This document shows positions 41,645-48,800 of a stretch of 64,000 nt of DNA, in pieces (within the stretch, counting starts at the first letter, position 1; each line of letters opens with the position of its first letter). Source of the DNA: Escherichia coli O127:H6 str. E2348/69 (GTDB lineage: Bacteria; Pseudomonadota; Gammaproteobacteria; Enterobacterales; Enterobacteriaceae); assembly GCF_000026545.1 (NCBI RefSeq), contig NC_011601.1. One strand, written 5' to 3'. Both the position numbers and the translations under genes were made by a program. A model generated the notes under the pieces. That model was given only the letters and a program-made list of their open reading frames with translations. It searched no databases and was not told the DNA's origin.

Positions 41645-42574
41645 ATGGAACGACTAAAACGCATGTCGGTGTTTGCCAAAGTAGTTGAATTTGGCTCTTT
41701 TACCGCCGCCGCCAGACAGCTACAGATGAGCGTTTCGTCCATCAGTCAGACGGTGTCAAAACTGGAAGATGAGTTACAGGTAAAGCTGTTAAACCGTAGT
41801 ACACGCAGCATTGGCCTGACTGAAGCCGGCAGAATTTACTACCAGGGCTGCCGTCGGATGCTCCATGAAGTGCAGGATGTTCATGAGCAACTGTATGCCT
41901 TCAATAACACCCCCATCGGGACGCTGCGCATTGGCTGTTCTTCAACTATGGCACAAAATGTTCTCGCCGGGCTGACGGCAAAAATGCTGAAAGAATACCC
42001 AGGTTTGAGCGTCAATCTGGTTACCGGAATTCCTGCCCCCGACCTGATTGCCGACGGTCTGGATGTGGTGATCCGCGTCGGCGCGTTGCAAGATTCCAGC
42101 CTGTTTTCCCGCCGTCTGGGCGCGATGCCAATGGTGGTGTGCGCCGCAAAAAGCTATCTCACACAATACGGCATACCAGAAAAACCCGCCGATTTAAGTA
42201 GTCATTCATGGCTTGAATACAGCGTGCGACCCGACAATGAATTTGAACTGATCGCACCGGAAGGGATCTCGACTCGCCTGATCCCGCAAGGGAGATTTGT
42301 GACTAATGATCCGATGACGCTGGTGCGCTGGCTGACGGCGGGTGCCGGGATCGCCTACGTGCCGCTGATGTGGGTGATCAACGAGATCAATCGCGGGGAA
42401 CTGGAGATCCTGCTGCCACGTTACCAGTCAGACCCACGCCCGGTTTATGCGTTATATACCGAAAAAGATAAGCTGCCGCTGAAGGTACAAGTCGTGATCA
42501 ACTCGCTAACGGATTATTTTGTTGAGGTCGGTAAATTGTTTCAGGAGATGCACGGGCGCGGGAAAGAGAAGTAA
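41645..42574 (+). CDS. aaeR: AaeR, LysR-family activator of aaeXAB
   Basis: 309 aa, N-terminal HTH, divergent from aaeXAB. Confidence 0.95.
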   Translation: MERLKRMSVFAKVVEFGSFTAAARQLQMSVSSISQTVSKLEDELQVKLLNRSTRSIGLTEAGRIYYQGCRRMLHEVQDVHEQLYAFNNTPIGTLRIGCSSTMAQNVLAGLTAKMLKEYPGLSVNLVTGIPAPDLIADGLDVVIRVGALQDSSLFSRRLGAMPMVVCAAKSYLTQYGIPEKPADLSSHSWLEYSVRPDNEFELIAPEGISTRLIPQGRFVTNDPMTLVRWLTAGAGIAYVPLMWVINEINRGELEILLPRYQSDPRPVYALYTEKDKLPLKVQVVINSLTDYFVEVGKLFQEMHGRGKEK

Positions 42575-42629
42575 TTAATATTGTACTGTTACGTTGTACA
42601 AACCTGTGCCAACGGGTTTCCCTCACCCT

Positions 42630-42637
42630 AACCCCAG
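42630..42637. repeat. Left copy of 8-bp flanking direct repeat AACCCCAG (target-site duplication)
   Basis: Identical 8-mer immediately abuts both IS termini (42630-42637 and 44188-44195). Confidence 0.75.
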
Positions 42638-42656
42638 CTGTCTCTTATACACAAAT
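42638..42656 (+). repeat. IS left terminal inverted repeat
   Basis: CTGTCTCTTATACACAAAT; overlaps a perfect 10-bp stem ACAAATCCCC / GGGGATTTGT at 42651-42674. Confidence 0.85.
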
Positions 42657-42802
42657 CCCCACCCGGGGATTTGTGATGTCTGTCAGTCTGCTTTAGGGGG
42701 ACTCTTTCCATCCGGTAGTTTCCTTCCTCCCCGGCAGCGATTTTTTGAACTTTTTCCTCACCCGTTGATCTTCTCTTATATTTCATTTTCTTCGGGTCTG
42801 TT

Positions 42803-44176
42803 ATGGTACTTTCTGATTGTTATTCATGGGCTAACGAGCAGTTTGGACATGCCCGTCTCGGTGATCCGCGTCGTACACGACGCCTTGTGTCACTGGCCTC
42901 TTCTCTCGCTCAGCATGCAGGTCTTTCTATTGTGAAATCATCCCAGTCCACTGCTCAGGTTGAAGGTGCGTACCGCCTGATACGTAACCCGTCTGTGTCC
43001 CCGCAAGCCATTGCCGAAGCCGGATTTACCGCCACTGTAAGGGCATGTGAGGCTCATCCGCTGCTCCTCGCGCTGGAAGACACCACCACCATTAACTTCA
43101 GTCACAGTACGGCATCTGATGACCTGGGGAATACCACCACTAACCCGAAGACGCGCGGGCTGCTGGCTCACTCTGTCCTGATGTACGCCCCCGACAGCGC
43201 CCTGCCAGTCGGTCTTATCGAACAGCAGCGCTGGAGTCGTGCCACGGACACCTACGGTGTTAAGCACCAGCGAAAAGAACGTCCCTATGAAGAAAAAGAA
43301 AGTTACCGCTGGCAGCAGGCTTCGGAGCGCATGGCCGAACGGCTGGGGGAGATACAGAAACGGGTAATCACTGTCTGTGACCGGGAAGCGGATATCTGGC
43401 ATTACCTGCATTATAAAGTCAGCCACGGGCAGCGCTTCGTGGTGCGTGCAGCACAGAATCGCCGGCTGGAAGAAGCACCCGGCAAGCTCTTCGAACTGCC
43501 GGAAGTCCTGGCAACCGCGGGAAGCCACACGCTGAATGTGATGCAAAAAGGCGGGCGGGCAGCCCGCCAGGCCCGGATGTTCATCAGTTACAGCGAAGTC
43601 AGCATAAAAAATCCCGACAACAGCGGCCAGGCGCTCCCGCTCACGTATGTCTGTTGCCGGGAGCAGGCAGAGGACGGCGCCTGCTGGCATCTGCTGACGT
43701 CAGAAAAAGTGGCGAGTGCCGCCGATGCGCGACGTATCGTCAGCCATTACGAGCGACGCTGGCTGATAGAGGAATACCACAAGGCGTGGAAAAGTGGTGG
43801 TACATGTGTGGAATCGCTGCGAATGCAGACCCGGGATAACCTCGAGCGCATGGTGGTTATCAAGGCGTTTATCGCGGTGCGGGTGCTGGGCCTGCGGCAG
43901 GGCGGTATCAGTGAAGAAACACAAAATGACAGCTGTGAGAAAATACTGACGCCGACAGAGTGGAAACTGCTGTGGGTTAAGCTGGAAGGAAAACCGCTTC
44001 CGTCACAGATGCCGACACTGAAATGGGCCTGTCTGAAACTGGCGAAACTGGGGCGATGGCATGACAGCAAACGCACCGGTCGCCCCGGTTGGGTAGTCAT
44101 GTGGGATGGCTGGTTCAGACTTCAGGATATGGTTGAGGGTTACCTGGTGATGAAGTCTCTTGATCAGGAGATCTGA
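42803..44176 (+). CDS. IS50-group DDE transposase (Tn5 Tnp homologue)
   Basis: 457 aa; blocks shared with Tn5 Tnp: GDPRRTRRLV, EGAYRLIRNP, LALEDTT (D93), VCDREADIWHYL (D193), YERRWLIEEYHKAWK (Y316-R319-E323-K330 YREK signature), DSKRTGRPGW; stop codon lies inside the right IR. Confidence 0.92.
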   Translation: MVLSDCYSWANEQFGHARLGDPRRTRRLVSLASSLAQHAGLSIVKSSQSTAQVEGAYRLIRNPSVSPQAIAEAGFTATVRACEAHPLLLALEDTTTINFSHSTASDDLGNTTTNPKTRGLLAHSVLMYAPDSALPVGLIEQQRWSRATDTYGVKHQRKERPYEEKESYRWQQASERMAERLGEIQKRVITVCDREADIWHYLHYKVSHGQRFVVRAAQNRRLEEAPGKLFELPEVLATAGSHTLNVMQKGGRAARQARMFISYSEVSIKNPDNSGQALPLTYVCCREQAEDGACWHLLTSEKVASAADARRIVSHYERRWLIEEYHKAWKSGGTCVESLRMQTRDNLERMVVIKAFIAVRVLGLRQGGISEETQNDSCEKILTPTEWKLLWVKLEGKPLPSQMPTLKWACLKLAKLGRWHDSKRTGRPGWVVMWDGWFRLQDMVEGYLVMKSLDQEI

Positions 44177-44187
44177 TCAAGAGACAG
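44169..44187 (-). repeat. IS right terminal inverted repeat
   Basis: Plus strand AGATCTGATCAAGAGACAG = reverse complement of CTGTCTCTTGATCAGATCT. Confidence 0.85.
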
Positions 44188-44195
44188 AACCCCAG
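44188..44195. repeat. Right copy of 8-bp flanking direct repeat AACCCCAG
   Basis: Identical to 42630-42637. Confidence 0.75.
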
Positions 44196-44259
44196 AGGGG
44201 CGAGGGGACCGTTCGTACACGGAGAAGGATTAATTATCCTTCTGAAAATACTGAAATTA

Positions 44260-45720
<1,461 letters not shown>

Positions 45721-45752
45721 TTAGTTACTGCAGTAGAGGATTTTTTACGGCT

Positions 45753-45786
45753 GCCGGATGCGGCGTGAACGCCCTGTCCGGCCTAC
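45753..45786. repeat. REP (repetitive extragenic palindrome) element
   Basis: GCCGGATGCGGCGTGAACGCCCTGTCCGGCCTAC in the tldD-yhdP intergenic region. Confidence 0.85.
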
Positions 45787-45860
45787 GGTTATGTTCTGGC
45801 TCGTTGGCCTTTGGCAACGATTATCATATGAGATTGGGGCAATTACGCGCCCTCGTCAAA

Positions 45861-48800
45861 TCATTGCGCTTTTTCTTTGCGCGGTTGTCGCAACACTTCG
45901 TTGATTTGCGGATCGTCCAGCGGACCCGAAATGTGATAGCGCAAAATGGAGACTTTGCTCCACAGCGGTCCCAGCACTTTACTGGCGGCAAACACTGCCG
46001 CGCCAACAATGGGGTTAACCGCAAAGGCCGCAGCCACGCCGACCGTCGCAGAAATCTCTGGTGCGACAACCGCTTCCATATTCAGGTCGCGACGTACCAG
46101 ATTTACCGACCCTTTCATAGCGATGTCCGCTTCCAGGCCATCCACCAGCGTGTCGTCGGTGTGCATAACGCCGTCTTTAATCCACGCGGTGCTGCGAATG
46201 GAGTCAAAATAGAACCCTTCGCCAAAAGTGTCTCTGAAATCAAAACGCAGCTTACGCATCAGGGCATCTACGCTCAATAAGCGCAGCAATTGCCCGGCAT
46301 GTCCGGTATTGATTTCGGTAATTTCGCCTTTACCCAGTTGAGTATGAATGATGCCATTCAACGTCGCCTCATCTGGCTGCCAGGGTGCTTTGCGCCAGTG
46401 TAAATCGTAATCCACATTAAATGACGACTGGCGTATGGGCGTCGTGACACCAAAAAATTCTGCGGCGGCATCAATTTTCTGCCCGCGCAGTTTTCCTTTC
46501 AGCGAGGTACGTTCATTCCCCGGATTGTTAACCCATTCACCATCGGCAGTGAGCCGCGAAAAACCAGTATCAATCAGTCCATTAGTCAGCGTTAACGTAT
46601 CGCCAGAAATGGTGATATCACTGTCAATACGACCGAATTTTTGCCCCCAGAACCAGCACTCTGCGCATCGTATTTGTGCGTCTGGCCAGCCACGGAAGTT
46701 AATGCGTTCCGTTGTCGGGAAAGGTGATGACTGTGTTGAATCACCACGAGTTTTCGCCACGCTTGGGTTGTAATAAAGATATTTGATATTCGCCAGCCAC
46801 GGTGCGTTATTACGCATCGCCAGCGTGGCGTTGATTTCACGCCCTTGCGCCTCAACCAGGGTGCCATTTGCCGTCGGTTGCGAAACAATACTCAGGTTAT
46901 TCCATTGCTGATTTCCCAGCGACAACATAGGCGTACGTAACGTTATGTGTTGTGGGAAACTCGCTGCACCACCGACACTCTCCGCCGCGCCTTTCTGGAA
47001 CAGGGCCAGCCACTCGGCACCATTCATCGGCGGCATATTGAGTTCAACGCCACTTTGTTCCGGCAACGGCGGGAGCGTTTTACTGTCTGCCGCCCAAATA
47101 GCACGATCGAGCGTCAGCTTTTGACCGAGCAACCAGCGGCTATTGAAATGGTTATCCGCACCAGCCTGTCCGGTTAATTCAAAGCTGTTGAGATTGCCAT
47201 CAACCTTAACGTTTACCGGTAGTGGTTCACCCGCAGGTTTGGCTAACGGTGAAGGTAAGTGACTGCTCACATTCTTCAAATCGCCGTTCAGCTCTACGTT
47301 ATACGTCGCGCCAGCATGATAAGGCAGCTCAATGCCCACTTTACCATCCCACGCCACGCTGCCACTTAATGCTTCGTTCACCGCTGCAGGCAGAACGCCG
47401 GTTTTCGCTGGTTGCCAGTTACCGTTGAGATTCACCGCGACCTGGTAGGCTTTTGCCCCTTCTTTGGTGGAAAAATCCACGTTCAACGGCTGATTAAACC
47501 AGCTTGCTGTCAGTGGTTCACTTTGCAGATCGCCATTAATAAAGCTGAATTTCCCGCTCAAATTTTTCAGGGTGCTGTCGAGTGGTTTGATAAACAGACT
47601 GTTATTACGCAGCGTCACTTCACCTTTCGCGGTTACCAGTTCGCCGTTCAGCGGAATATCGAGATGTAAGCGAGCATTCACATCGCCGTCGAGCTGGAGT
47701 TCTTGCAGGGTCGCCCCCAGAGAATCTTTCAGCGGTGTCTCATCAAAGTAAGGGCCAACGGCTTTACCCGGACCTTTAATGTCAGCGTCAATCAGCAGTT
47801 TTTCTTTTGAGTAGTCAGGGATCACTGCGGTGAGATTACTCGCGCGCACGCCGCCCAGATTAACGCCATCGGTTTTCATCCATAAACCGTCGTTAATAAA
47901 GTCCAGTTCAATATCAAGGTTAGTTAATGCAGGCCAGTCCGGCTGGAAGGCAAACTTCGCGTTGCGCAGCGGCACCAGCACTTCAAACTGACCTTCGTTG
48001 TGTTTATAGGGGAAGAGTTGCGGATTGCCACCATAAACCAGCGTCGCGTTATCCGCTTCACCGCCCTGAATCGCGCCACTTAAGTAATCAACCAGGTCTT
48101 TACCCATCAAGTTTTCCGGGAAATAGCGCCAGGCTTGTGAACCATCATCGGTACTGATGCCAGCCAGAATACCCAGCCAGGGTTCATCGTTAGCAGGTTG
48201 CAGGTAACGAAAACCGCCGCGCGCATGGACGGCTTTGGCTTTAACGTCAATATTACGCCCATCCAGCTGGAAACCTTTGTCATTGTTCAGCCAGCTTATC
48301 GTTGCCTGGCCGTCGGCGATTTCCAGTGGCGCACGGAATACCGTTTCGTAAGGCATCTTTGCCTGCTTCATCGACGCAGTAAGCAAACCATTTTCTACGC
48401 TGCCGGAAAGCGTCCCGGAGAAGTGTTCCGCACCCGGTAATAATTTCCATTGCTTCCAGGCCAGATCGCTCCACGATGCCTGAAAACGGGTCTTGTCTGC
48501 CGCCTGAAGCGGGATATCCAGCGCCAGAGTGTTAATCTTGCCGCTCGGTTGTGTGGAGCGCCAAACATCACCCAGTGCAGGTGAAAGTTTCGCGACCAGC
48601 GGGCGTACGCCCTCCAGGCCTGCCAGCTCCAGATTACTGGCGCGAATCCGGAGTTCGTCACTGCGTTTATTGTCTTTGCCGCCAACGTCCTGTTCCGGTA
48701 TCCAGGCCAGCGTCAATGCTCCGCTCGGCCAGGGTTTGCCGTCCATCGTGATCCGTGTATCGGGAATAGAGAACTGCCATCCCGGATTTTCACGCGTAAT

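Follow-up and report, generated by a model that had tools for sequence, protein, structure and literature searches.

An intact ISEc13 element between aaeR and tldD of Escherichia coli E2348/69 and the transposase stop codon within its right terminal repeat

A complete ISEc13 in the aaeR-tldD spacer

The window, i.e. the whole stretch of 64,000 nt that was analysed, contains two convergent genes, aaeR (41645-42574, + strand) and tldD (44260-45705, - strand), with a complete copy of ISEc13 (IS4 family, IS50 subgroup; 42638-44187, + strand; 1,550 bp) between them. The gene aaeR encodes a LysR-type activator (ORF, Pfam HTH_1 and LysR_substrate, RefSeq) and its stop is located 63 bp ahead of the left tip of the IS, and tldD encodes the 481-aa metalloprotease TldD (ORF, Pfam, RefSeq) and ends with the stop TAA at 44260-44262. 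RefSeq annotates ISEc13 at the same site in E2348/69, and the sequence matched the annotated ISEc13 copies of this strain over 1,550/1,550 bp at 100% identity, the product of these copies being 'IS4-like element ISEc13 family transposase' (WP_000244358.1). E2348/69 contains roughly 30 copies of ISEc13, and 873 genomes have full-length elements. The papers that can be searched list ISEc13 and say no more about it.

The transposase ORF (42803-44176 with its stop codon, + strand; 457 aa) has no frameshift and was identified by matches to Pfam and to Tn5 structures. Both Tnp_DNA_bind (70.1 bits, cut-off 24) and DDE_Tnp_1 (30.9 bits, cut-off 23) were found, Dimer_Tnp_Tn5 scored slightly below its cut-off (24.1 against 26.7 bits), and the C-terminal region aligned with the Tn5 transposase up to residue 453; the match to the solved Tn5 transposase structures had E = 6e-84. 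Residues D93, D193 and E323, which were invariant in a three-way alignment with an IS50-like and a Vibrio transposase, form a DDE triad with IS4-type spacing and align to the catalytic region of the Tn5 transposase. The Y-(2)-R-(3)-E-(6)-K signature (De Palmenaer et al. 2008) was present as Y316, R319, E323 and K330 in HYERRWLIEEYHKAWK, with all columns invariant. According to the same paper, elements of the subgroup have a size of 1,350-1,550 bp and direct repeats of 8-9 bp (Table 1 for the repeats), and ISEc13 is within these norms with its one 457-aa ORF, its 1,550 bp, ends of the 5'-CT/CW type, both beginning with CTGTCTCTT, and an 8-bp duplication. ISEc13 is a Tn5/IS50-like cut-and-paste DDE element, and it shares with IS50 (Tn5) the protein fold and domains at 39-42% protein identity.

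The left terminal repeat CTGTCTCTTATACACAAATCC (42638-42658, + strand) is of the outside-end type and is unique in the window. Its first 22 nt show 0-1 differences in 12 relatives, with 62-71% nucleotide identity between sub-clades, and there is one difference in the first 19 positions when the left end is compared with the outside end of an IS50-like element, designated L003. Overlapping the left repeat is a hairpin with an 11-bp stem and a 4-nt loop (42650-42675, + strand), and a hairpin adjoining this repeat is a feature that distinguishes ISEc13 from IS50. The corresponding hairpin of the relatives is an inward-facing intrinsic terminator that lies immediately past the left repeat and is followed by TTGAAC; the T-run was lost in ISEc13. 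Given that the left-end hairpin of ISEc13 is without a T-run, transcripts from aaeR could run on into the left end of the IS, which would raise + strand transcription over the element.

The empty site was reconstructed from strains Nissle and K-12, in which a single AACCCCAG is located in the loop of a long GC-rich palindrome that forms one long hairpin between aaeR and tldD. In E2348/69 this native palindrome is split by the IS into a left half (42603-42637) and a right half (44188-44222), and AACCCCAG is found on both sides as an 8-bp target-site duplication (42630-42637 and 44188-44195). Thus, ISEc13 inserted at the apex of a palindrome, the only large one in the spacer that forms a hairpin, and duplicated 8 bp of it. 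Because the palindrome was split at its apex, no intact hairpin of this native structure remains between the IS tip and tldD. With the loss of the palindrome common to their 3' regions, aaeR and tldD of the E2348/69 lineage must have 3' ends other than those in K-12. A second native hairpin, A/T-rich and also present in the empty site, is located in the tldD 3' region (agaaggat / atccttct, loop taatt; 44223-44243); its 8-bp stem (44223-44230 / 44236-44243) has a predicted energy of -11.3 kcal/mol (z = -3.0) and there is no U-tract on either strand. The insertion junction was found in 4 of 5,426 E. coli genomes (the E2348/69 lineage and one other), and the remaining genomes matched only from the first base past the IS tip. 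An Rfam scan of 42300-46000 (E <= 1) gave no family for the IS end or the spacer, and the sole match was a sub-threshold naRNA4/REP at 45739-45783.

The right end, its stop codon and its hairpin

The right terminal repeat CTGTCTCTTGATCAGATCTCC (44167-44187, - strand) is of the inside-end type with its tip at 44187, and this sequence was found once in the window compared with 0 expected. The junction reads ...GAG ATC TGA TCAAGAGACAG|AACCCCAG..., where the bar marks the IS tip. The preliminary description had placed the transposase stop within the terminal repeat, with the transposase oriented towards tldD, and both points were borne out: the ORF at 42803-44176 (+) faces tldD at 44260-45705 (-), and the TGA at 44174-44176 (+ strand) makes up nucleotides 12-14 of this repeat and is separated from the tip by 11 bp. 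The distance of 84 bp given between the two stops is a coordinate subtraction, which corresponds to 83 nt between the codons; from the IS tip to the tldD stop there are 72 nt (44188-44259). For this interval no obvious terminator hairpin had been described, which holds for a hairpin-plus-U structure on the + strand (consensus scan) but not for hairpins in general, as hairpins without a U-tract do occur.

The position of the stop codon is not specific for this locus. A right end reading TGA-TCAAGAGACAG, which leaves 11 bp between stop and tip, was found in IS50 and in 34/43 distinct relatives, the 43 being the distinct right ends with a placeable stop, from relatives at 38-57% protein identity. 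The IS50-like element L003 terminates with ...ATC TGA TCAAGAGACAG, has a 9-bp duplication, and shares with ISEc13 the first 19 nt of the right repeat and the GATC sites. The stop is inside the repeat because the conserved end of the subgroup is ...TGATCAAGAGACAG, whose TGA serves as stop, and the overlap is a compact layout inherited across the IS50 subgroup. Three GATC (Dam) sites are present at the right end of ISEc13 (44162, 44170 and 44175, together spanning 44162-44178), and in the inside end of IS50 methylation of GATC regulates transposition. The layout is standard for a catalogued IS, and the insertion is already annotated in the well-studied EPEC strain E2348/69. In elements of the IS50 group, a stop within the repeat and the lack of a terminator behind it are to be expected and do not point to regulation. 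The preliminary description overlooked this subgroup-wide layout, the native hairpin lost through the IS and a strong, conserved hairpin that covers the stop codon immediately ahead of the interval that it considered.

The latter is a palindrome at 44155-44185 that overlaps the stop codon and consists of an inner arm GTCTCTTGATCAG, a loop GAGAT and an outer arm CTGATCAAGAGAC. The stem (44155-44167 / 44173-44185) is complementary at 13/13 positions; its inner arm encodes the codons S-L-D-Q and its outer arm is positions 3-15 of the IS tip. It is possible, but in our judgement rather unlikely, that this hairpin sets the 3' end of the transposase mRNA, either as an attenuator or pause site without U-tract or as a barrier for 3'-5' exonucleases, with the consequence that little, if any, RNA antisense to tldD accumulates. 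Compatible with such a role are the perfect stem and the stability of the 51-nt fold around it (-26.6 kcal/mol, z = -5.0), as well as the conservation of the palindrome in ISEc13, a Shigella remnant and relatives from Vibrio, Shewanella, Alteromonas and Xenorhabdus. Moreover, the inner-arm codons TCT-CTT were used in 26/30 tails, where about 2% would be expected and each of the two is used at about 15% elsewhere in those genes, and in one case there was a compensatory change, the CAG/CTG pair of ISEc13 being CAC/GTG in the relative L004. On the other hand, the absence of a U-tract on both strands means that this is not a canonical intrinsic terminator, and the palindrome is dispensable to the family, since it is absent from IS50, the Photorhabdus clade and remoter clades. 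Furthermore, the outer arm is the transposase-binding tip, so the palindrome could act at the DNA level, and as this arm is fixed it provides no usable covariation.

Conservation of the K-S-L-D protein sequence as the mere reason for the inner arm was ruled out, as the synonymous sites are fixed; their pattern argues for selection at the nucleotide level in this clade. That the inner arm might be a second transposase-binding site or a decoy end was considered, and it has AAG at the place of the CTG of the tip. The hairpin could also stabilise a long-lived 3' end instead of limiting read-through. A composite terminator, formed by the IS-end hairpin and the T-run of a split host terminator, was examined separately and rejected, since the T-run is 15-20 nt off the stem in the relatives and absent here. 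IS10/Tn10 and IS50 are protected from outside transcription, and IS10 has the antisense RNA-OUT. The ISEc13 group resembles these elements in having secondary structure near an IS end that overlaps transposase expression signals, and ISEc13 differs from IS10 in that neither an antisense promoter nor an Rfam family was found and in that the structure covers the stop codon (3' end) and not the ribosome-binding site.

Transcription across the right end

For outward transcription towards tldD, a consensus scan of 44177-44320 revealed no terminator-like sites on the + strand. Directly after the hairpins at 44155-44185 and 44223-44243 the sequence reads AGAACCCC and GAAAAUAC, respectively, without a U-tract, and the earliest run of at least four T on this strand is at 44462. 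RNA antisense to tldD has a C/G ratio of 1.6-1.8 over 44257-44416, which is a composition favourable for Rho, and E. coli Rho suppresses untranslated C-rich antisense transcripts. No sigma-70-like promoter, either outward-facing or for the transposase, was scored within the IS by a crude consensus scan, which gave 2 matches compared with 2.2 expected (chance level) and may miss a weak Dam-regulated promoter. A candidate promoter could be placed by eye at TTGAAC (42745-42750), a 16-nt spacer and GATCTT (42767-42772), with a GATC at 42767 in the putative -10 sequence; IS50-type transposase promoters are weak and Dam-repressed. Transposase transcription would by analogy with IS50 be weak, and any transcripts extending beyond the 13-bp end hairpin would be untranslated and C-rich and would be stopped by Rho within a few hundred nt. 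Read-through limited in this way would have a negligible effect on tldD, and the antisense effect of the IS on this gene is probably small. In agreement with the K-12 data described below, the stronger flow is probably the opposite one, in which tldD transcripts run on into the IS and are antisense to the 3' end of the transposase gene. We conclude with good confidence that the right terminus seen here, of the inside-end type, belongs to an intact ISEc13 that inserted recently into the spacer of the convergent genes aaeR and tldD, with an inherited stop-codon overlap and a read-through that is probably weak and Rho-limited.

The relevant antisense RNA might instead run in the reverse direction, such that transcription of tldD, with the palindrome gone, enters the right end of the IS, crosses the end sequence antisense to the 3' part of the transposase gene and damps ISEc13 activity there, an explanation that we consider doubtful. 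In line with this, tldD is a housekeeping gene whereas the IS has no scoring promoter. Minus-strand transcription traverses the intact spacer in K-12 and has a Rho-dependent end, for which Supplementary file 2 of Adams et al. 2021 (eLife) gives a termination region at 3390148 that lies antisense to aaeR on this strand (Rho score 5.99, p = 5.5e-18). This region is 435 nt past the K-12 tldD stop at 3390583, a distance that applies to a spacer without the IS and is relevant for tldD under the assumption that tldD is the source of the minus-strand reads. No tldD 3' end is listed in Adams et al. 2021, only the Rho region antisense to aaeR. The terminator-like matches of the minus strand near the junction are only weak 5-bp stems (44201-44189 and 44205-44190), which would favour entry of tldD transcripts into the IS. 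Against this, the K-12 evidence comes from a strain that does not carry the IS at this site, tldD transcripts might be halted early by the IS-end hairpin or by Rho sites within the IS, and any effect on transposition would follow from the general inhibition of IS ends by impinging transcription.

It is very unlikely that transposase read-through gives antisense RNA over the tldD 3' end that measurably lowers or alters tldD expression: the + strand from the stop codon to tldD is without a hairpin-plus-U terminator, the native palindrome is split and both hairpins on the route lack a U-tract, but no promoter-like match was scored within the IS, promoters of the IS50 type are as a rule weak and repressed by Dam, the read-through RNA would be untranslated, C-rich and of the type suppressed by Rho, and it would meet opposing tldD transcription that in K-12 is able to cross the spacer.

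Insertion at hairpin apexes

Insertion at a palindrome apex was not restricted to the aaeR-tldD spacer. Among 28 reconstructed sites of ISEc13 and its relatives, 20 had a duplication whose centre ranked in the highest 5% of the local palindrome scores (binomial 2e-20), and for ISEc13 alone this applied to 7/11 sites (2e-7). ISEc13 and its relatives insert at the axis of hairpin-forming palindromes far more often than expected by chance, whether this is driven by the transposase or by selection. Selection alone is an unlikely source of these insertions, because the centring is within about half a nucleotide in spacers of 100-200 bp and an insertion at the apex destroys the hairpin. The target pattern for ISEc13 is CCCC-N8-GGGG. 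Of 13 fetched ISEc13 copies ten had a duplication of 8 bp, two of 9 bp and one of 7 bp; the length differed between identical copies, and a 12-bp duplication was found in a relative with 93% identity.

We tentatively suggest, with somewhat more doubt than confidence, that ISEc13 and its relatives constitute a Tn5-like clade that targets palindrome apexes by a stem-symmetric strand transfer, with duplications that track the loop size and with compensating structures of their own. The targeted palindromes may often be bidirectional intrinsic terminators between convergent genes. The two points of strand transfer appear to have no fixed stagger but a symmetric placement in the stem, some 2-3 bp below its loop, and symmetric cuts of this kind would lead to duplications that follow the loop size, i.e. 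8, 9 or 10 bp from identical copies. The compensating structures would be the inward-facing terminator past the left repeat and a selected palindrome made of the right tip and the last transposase codons. If the transposase drives apex targeting with a flexible stagger, this would be an unusual mode of target capture for a Tn5-like enzyme, and apex targeting, if true, would bear on safe landing sites for ISs and on the engineering of Tn5-type transposases. In the literature that was searched, no description of apex targeting by IS50-subgroup elements was found; ISfinder or Figure 3 of De Palmenaer et al. 2008 may record it.

ISEc13 thus differs from IS50 in several respects: the duplications are mostly 8 bp and not 9 bp, a perfect 13-bp subterminal palindrome is present that IS50 does not have, and the insertions are at hairpin apexes whereas the single IS50-like site examined had no hairpin. 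The target of IS231A is GGG(N)5CCC; its insertion involves bending of the DNA and gives duplications of 10-12 bp. It resembles ISEc13 in belonging to the IS4 family, in its symmetric GC-rich target and in a variable duplication length, and differs in its subgroup and its ends; the polarity of the ISEc13 target is reversed, and the ISEc13 duplication is placed at a hairpin or terminator loop. De Palmenaer et al. 2008 cite the insertion specificity of IS231A. The ISs that insert into REP palindromes, namely IS1397/ISKpn1 (IS3 family), ISPsy8, ISPpu9/10 and IS621 (IS110 family), likewise integrate at or close to the symmetry axis of extragenic palindromes that form hairpins (Tobes and Pareja 2006). 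These have unrelated transposases and mechanisms (copy-out-paste-in; bridge-RNA recombinases), and they hit a single repeat family, in contrast to ISEc13 and its relatives, for which the targets are numerous hairpins and terminators unrelated to each other. Bacterial group II introns of class C home to intrinsic terminators and, like ISEc13, use terminator stem-loops as landing sites, which limits gene damage; these introns belong to the retroelements and insert behind a stem-loop that they recognise in single-stranded form, whereas ISEc13 is a DDE transposon that inserts into the apex.

The right end of ISEc13

The 1,550 bp at 42638-44187 showed 100% identity to annotated copies of ISEc13 (IS4 family), and the RefSeq annotation of E2348/69 already places ISEc13 at exactly this position between aaeR and tldD. 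The size of the element, its CT-starting ends and its 8-bp duplication agree with the IS50 subgroup table (De Palmenaer et al. 2008). The transposase ORF (42803-44176, + strand, 457 aa) was the sole long ORF ending at this point; residues 6-453 matched solved Tn5 transposase structures (E = 6e-84), identity to IS50-type transposases was 39-42%, and the DDE triad (D93, D193, E323) and the Y-2-R-3-E-6-K signature (Y316, R319, E323, K330) were invariant in the alignment. The protein has a DNA-binding domain of the Tn5 type and a DDE domain, and the Tn5 dimerisation domain scored just below the cut-off. EPEC E2348/69 assemblies contained 27-30 ISEc13 matching places per chromosome. Of the 5,426 complete E. 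coli genomes, just 4 had the element at the aaeR-tldD junction, namely three O127:H6/E2348/69 assemblies and a further human isolate, and in the remaining genomes the match began precisely one base past the IS tip, the outermost base of the element (44187); this insertion is recent and lineage-specific.

The left terminal repeat CTGTCTCTTATACACAAATCC (starting at 42638, + strand) and the right terminal repeat CTGTCTCTTGATCAGATCTCC (44187-44167, - strand) each occurred once in the 64-kb window, with 0 expected by chance. The preliminary description had placed the transposase stop within the right repeat, converging on the stop of tldD, and this layout was confirmed. The TGA at 44174-44176 occupies repeat positions 12-14, 11 bp from the tip, and tldD (44260-45705, - strand, an ORF with all three PmbA/TldD domains) ends with a TAA at 44260-44262, giving 83 nt from stop to stop and 72 nt from the IS tip to the tldD stop. 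The segment 44140-44262 reads ...AAG TCT CTT GAT CAG GAG ATC TGA TCAAGAGACAG/AACCCCAGAGGGG...ACTGAAATTA/TTA.

The same layout recurred among 80 fetched loci, whose encoded relatives are 38-57% identical and derive from Photorhabdus, Xenorhabdus, Vibrio, Shewanella, Alishewanella, Legionella and further sources. The stop could be placed in 43 distinct right ends: 34 of them have TGA-TCAAGAGACAG, with 11 bp between stop and tip, and the majority of the rest have the stop at 18-23 bp, still in the end region. A Citrobacter plasmid carries an IS50-like element, flanked by a 9-bp duplication, whose right end reads ...ATC AAG ATC TGA TCAAGAGACAG and whose TGA is placed identically within an identical 19-nt end sequence. 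The stop codon is thus part of the conserved transposase-binding end, and its layout is inherited. A stop within the end is a general trait of compact IS elements with nothing specific to tldD. The feature is real and ordinary: a known IS is annotated here, and its right end has the architecture shared by the family.

The preliminary description overlooked a hairpin that spans the stop codon. Positions 44155-44167 (GTCTCTTGATCAG, coding for S-L-D-Q) are perfectly complementary (13/13) to 44173-44185 (CTGATCAAGAGAC, tip positions 3-15), which forms a hairpin at 44155-44185 with a 5-nt loop and the stop codon within the 3' arm; a 51-nt segment here gave -26.6 kcal/mol (z = -5.0). The hairpin is shared by a Shigella remnant and by a Vibrio owensii relative (52% protein identity) in which the innermost pair shows a compensatory change (CAG/CTG to CAC/GTG), and most relatives from Vibrio, Shewanella, Alteromonas and Xenorhabdus have it as well, with a palindrome at the equivalent position in loci L004, L005, L016-L048, L055 and L074. 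It was missing from the Photorhabdus clade, from more distant clades and from IS50, which, unlike ISEc13, has no palindrome between the right tip and transposase codons. TCT-CTT was exact in 26 of 30 relatives with an S-L motif in the C-terminal tail (mostly K/Q/M-S-L-D/E), whereas in the rest of the same genes TCT and CTT each made up about 15% of the Ser and Leu codons, respectively, and the inner arm therefore appears to be selected at the nucleotide level. Since no U-run follows the stem on either strand, this is not a canonical terminator; it may stabilise the 3' end, act as a pause site or work at the DNA level in the IS end.

Insertion into hairpin apexes

The aaeR-tldD spacer of Nissle 1917 and K-12 has a long imperfect palindrome, cctgtgccaacgggttCCCCTCACCCTaaccccagaGGGGCGAGGGGaccgttcgtacacgg, which folds as a single hairpin on either strand. 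Similar palindromes occur at a median of five places per E. coli genome and make up a small repeat family. ISEc13 occupies the loop of the spacer palindrome: AACCCCAG is single in the empty site and doubled in the window (42630-42637 and 44188-44195), so that the only large hairpin of the spacer is split. The right half of the palindrome survives between the IS tip and tldD, as does a native hairpin (8 bp, A/T-rich, 44223-44243); no U-tract follows either. The claim that a terminator is missing before tldD was borne out, as a consensus scan of the + strand at 44177-44320 gave no terminator-like site and the earliest T4 run on this strand was at 44462; this absence is due to the insertion site.

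Some minor differences were seen at this junction. On the - strand (tldD sense), 44189-44205 generates two weak terminator-like matches, one of which is GCCCCTCTGGGGT then TCTGTCTCTT, with a T-rich tail that comes from the IS tip. Window position 42617 in the left arm is T, compared with C in Nissle (locus L001, position 1490) and K-12 (gggtttccc vs gggttcccc), and the loop is 6 bp longer in K-12 than in Nissle and E2348/69.

Rebuilding empty sites from the flanks gave 19 distinct sites for the fetched elements, with the IS50-like element and the window copy counted in, and 13 more fetched ISEc13 copies in E. coli gave 10 additional distinct sites. At most sites the duplication coincided with a hairpin loop and the uppermost base pairs of the stem (window 42603-42637 and 44188-44222; L004, L016, L030, L034-L038, L043-L045, L051, L055, L074 and L087-L097). 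Ranked by palindrome score within 40 nt, the duplication centre (within 0.5 nt) was among the top 5% at 20 of 28 sites (binomial, 2e-20), and at 7 of 11 sites for ISEc13 alone (binomial, 2e-7). Many targets are textbook bidirectional intrinsic terminators, e.g. aaaaggccaCCTTCGGGtggccttttttt and aaaaaaggcaGCCATTGGCtgccttttt, and CCCTCTCC...GGAGAGGG hairpins also host more distant relatives. The ISEc13 target is approximately CCCCT-N8-AGGGG and several sites are flanked by convergent genes (agp/yccJ, ybaY/MGMT-family gene, symE/DUF1127 gene and yehA/rcnB).

Duplication length varied with the size of the loop in the target hairpin, and the duplications took in about 2-3 stem pairs to either side of the loop. 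Four 100% identical Alishewanella copies (L036, L037, L038 and L051) had duplications of 8, 8, 9 and 10 bp, a second 100% identical pair (L045 and L055) had 10 and 8 bp, and a 93%-identical relative had 12 bp; a DDE transposase of fixed stagger would not usually give such a spread. Terminator-homing group II introns and IS231A (IS4 family) are parallels to this apparent targeting. Further parallels are the REP-targeting IS1397, ISPsy8 and ISPpu9 (Tobes and Pareja 2006). No description of hairpin-apex targeting by the IS50 subgroup was found in the searchable literature, and only this putative targeting with its flexible stagger might merit further work.

Several copies departed from the pattern. 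One ISEc13 copy (L086) interrupts dgoD in E2348/69 at a target of weak resemblance (CTCT...GGCGG), and another (L088) is without a duplication, which suggests rearrangement between copies. In Photorhabdus thracensis (L015) the flanks are mutual reverse complements up to the IS tips (…ccctcgtccagtg/IS/cactggacgaggg…) and no direct repeat was present at the flanks. An exact duplication was also lacking in L006, L009, L025-L027 and in L023, L046, L057, L059 and L060, the last five being readable as decayed or offset duplications.

Transcription across the junction and the left end

DirectRNA-seq with and without bicyclomycin identified a Rho termination region at 3390148 of K-12 (NC_000913.3, minus strand, antisense to aaeR), with coverage of 148 upstream and 26 downstream without bicyclomycin and 231 and 243 with it (Rho score 5.99, p = 5.5e-18; Adams et al. 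2021, eLife, Supplementary file 2). Given that tldD ends at 3390583 and aaeR at 3390449 in K-12, this position is inside aaeR (approximately window 42270) and 435 nt beyond the tldD stop, and minus-strand transcription therefore crosses the intact K-12 spacer palindrome, most simply originating in tldD. In E2348/69 such flow would run into the right end of the IS, antisense to the transposase. Putative transcription from tldD into ISEc13 is accordingly a tentative reading, somewhat doubtful but better supported than transcription in the opposite direction.

That opposite direction, in which read-through from the IS would produce antisense RNA on tldD as the preliminary description proposed, is very unlikely to matter: some read-through is plausible because nothing canonical halts + strand transcription after the transposase stop codon, but the promoter scan scored no sigma-70-like promoter in ISEc13, and RNA past 44176 would be untranslated, with a C-rich, G-poor composition at 44257-44416 (C/G 1.6-1.8) that favours Rho. 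Rho suppresses antisense transcripts in E. coli, and transposase promoters of the IS50 type are weak and Dam-controlled. A GATC is located at 42767, within the possible -10 region, and three further GATC are in the right end. Any effect of the putative antisense tldD RNA is probably minor. Separately, the stretch between tldD and yhdP contains a REP-type palindrome, gccggatgcggcgtgaacgccctgtccggcctac, at 45739-45783, which gave a sub-threshold Rfam naRNA4 match (31.4 bits vs a gathering score of 59.5).

At the left ends of relatives (L004, L017-L052 and L074) the order is repeat, covarying hairpin, T7-8 and TTGAAC, with GATC sites near the -10 position; this order makes an inward-facing terminator, after which comes a likely -35 element. 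ISEc13 has retained the hairpin (42650-42675), has lost the T-run and has about 45 extra bp ahead of TTGAAC compared with the relatives (42638-42675 and 42745-42772). The first 16 nt (42638-42653), CTGTCTCTTATACACA, are identical to the opening bases of the engineered mosaic end of Tn5 that serves as the Nextera adapter sequence, and in E. coli data the trimming of adapters could cut authentic reads at the left ends of ISEc13.
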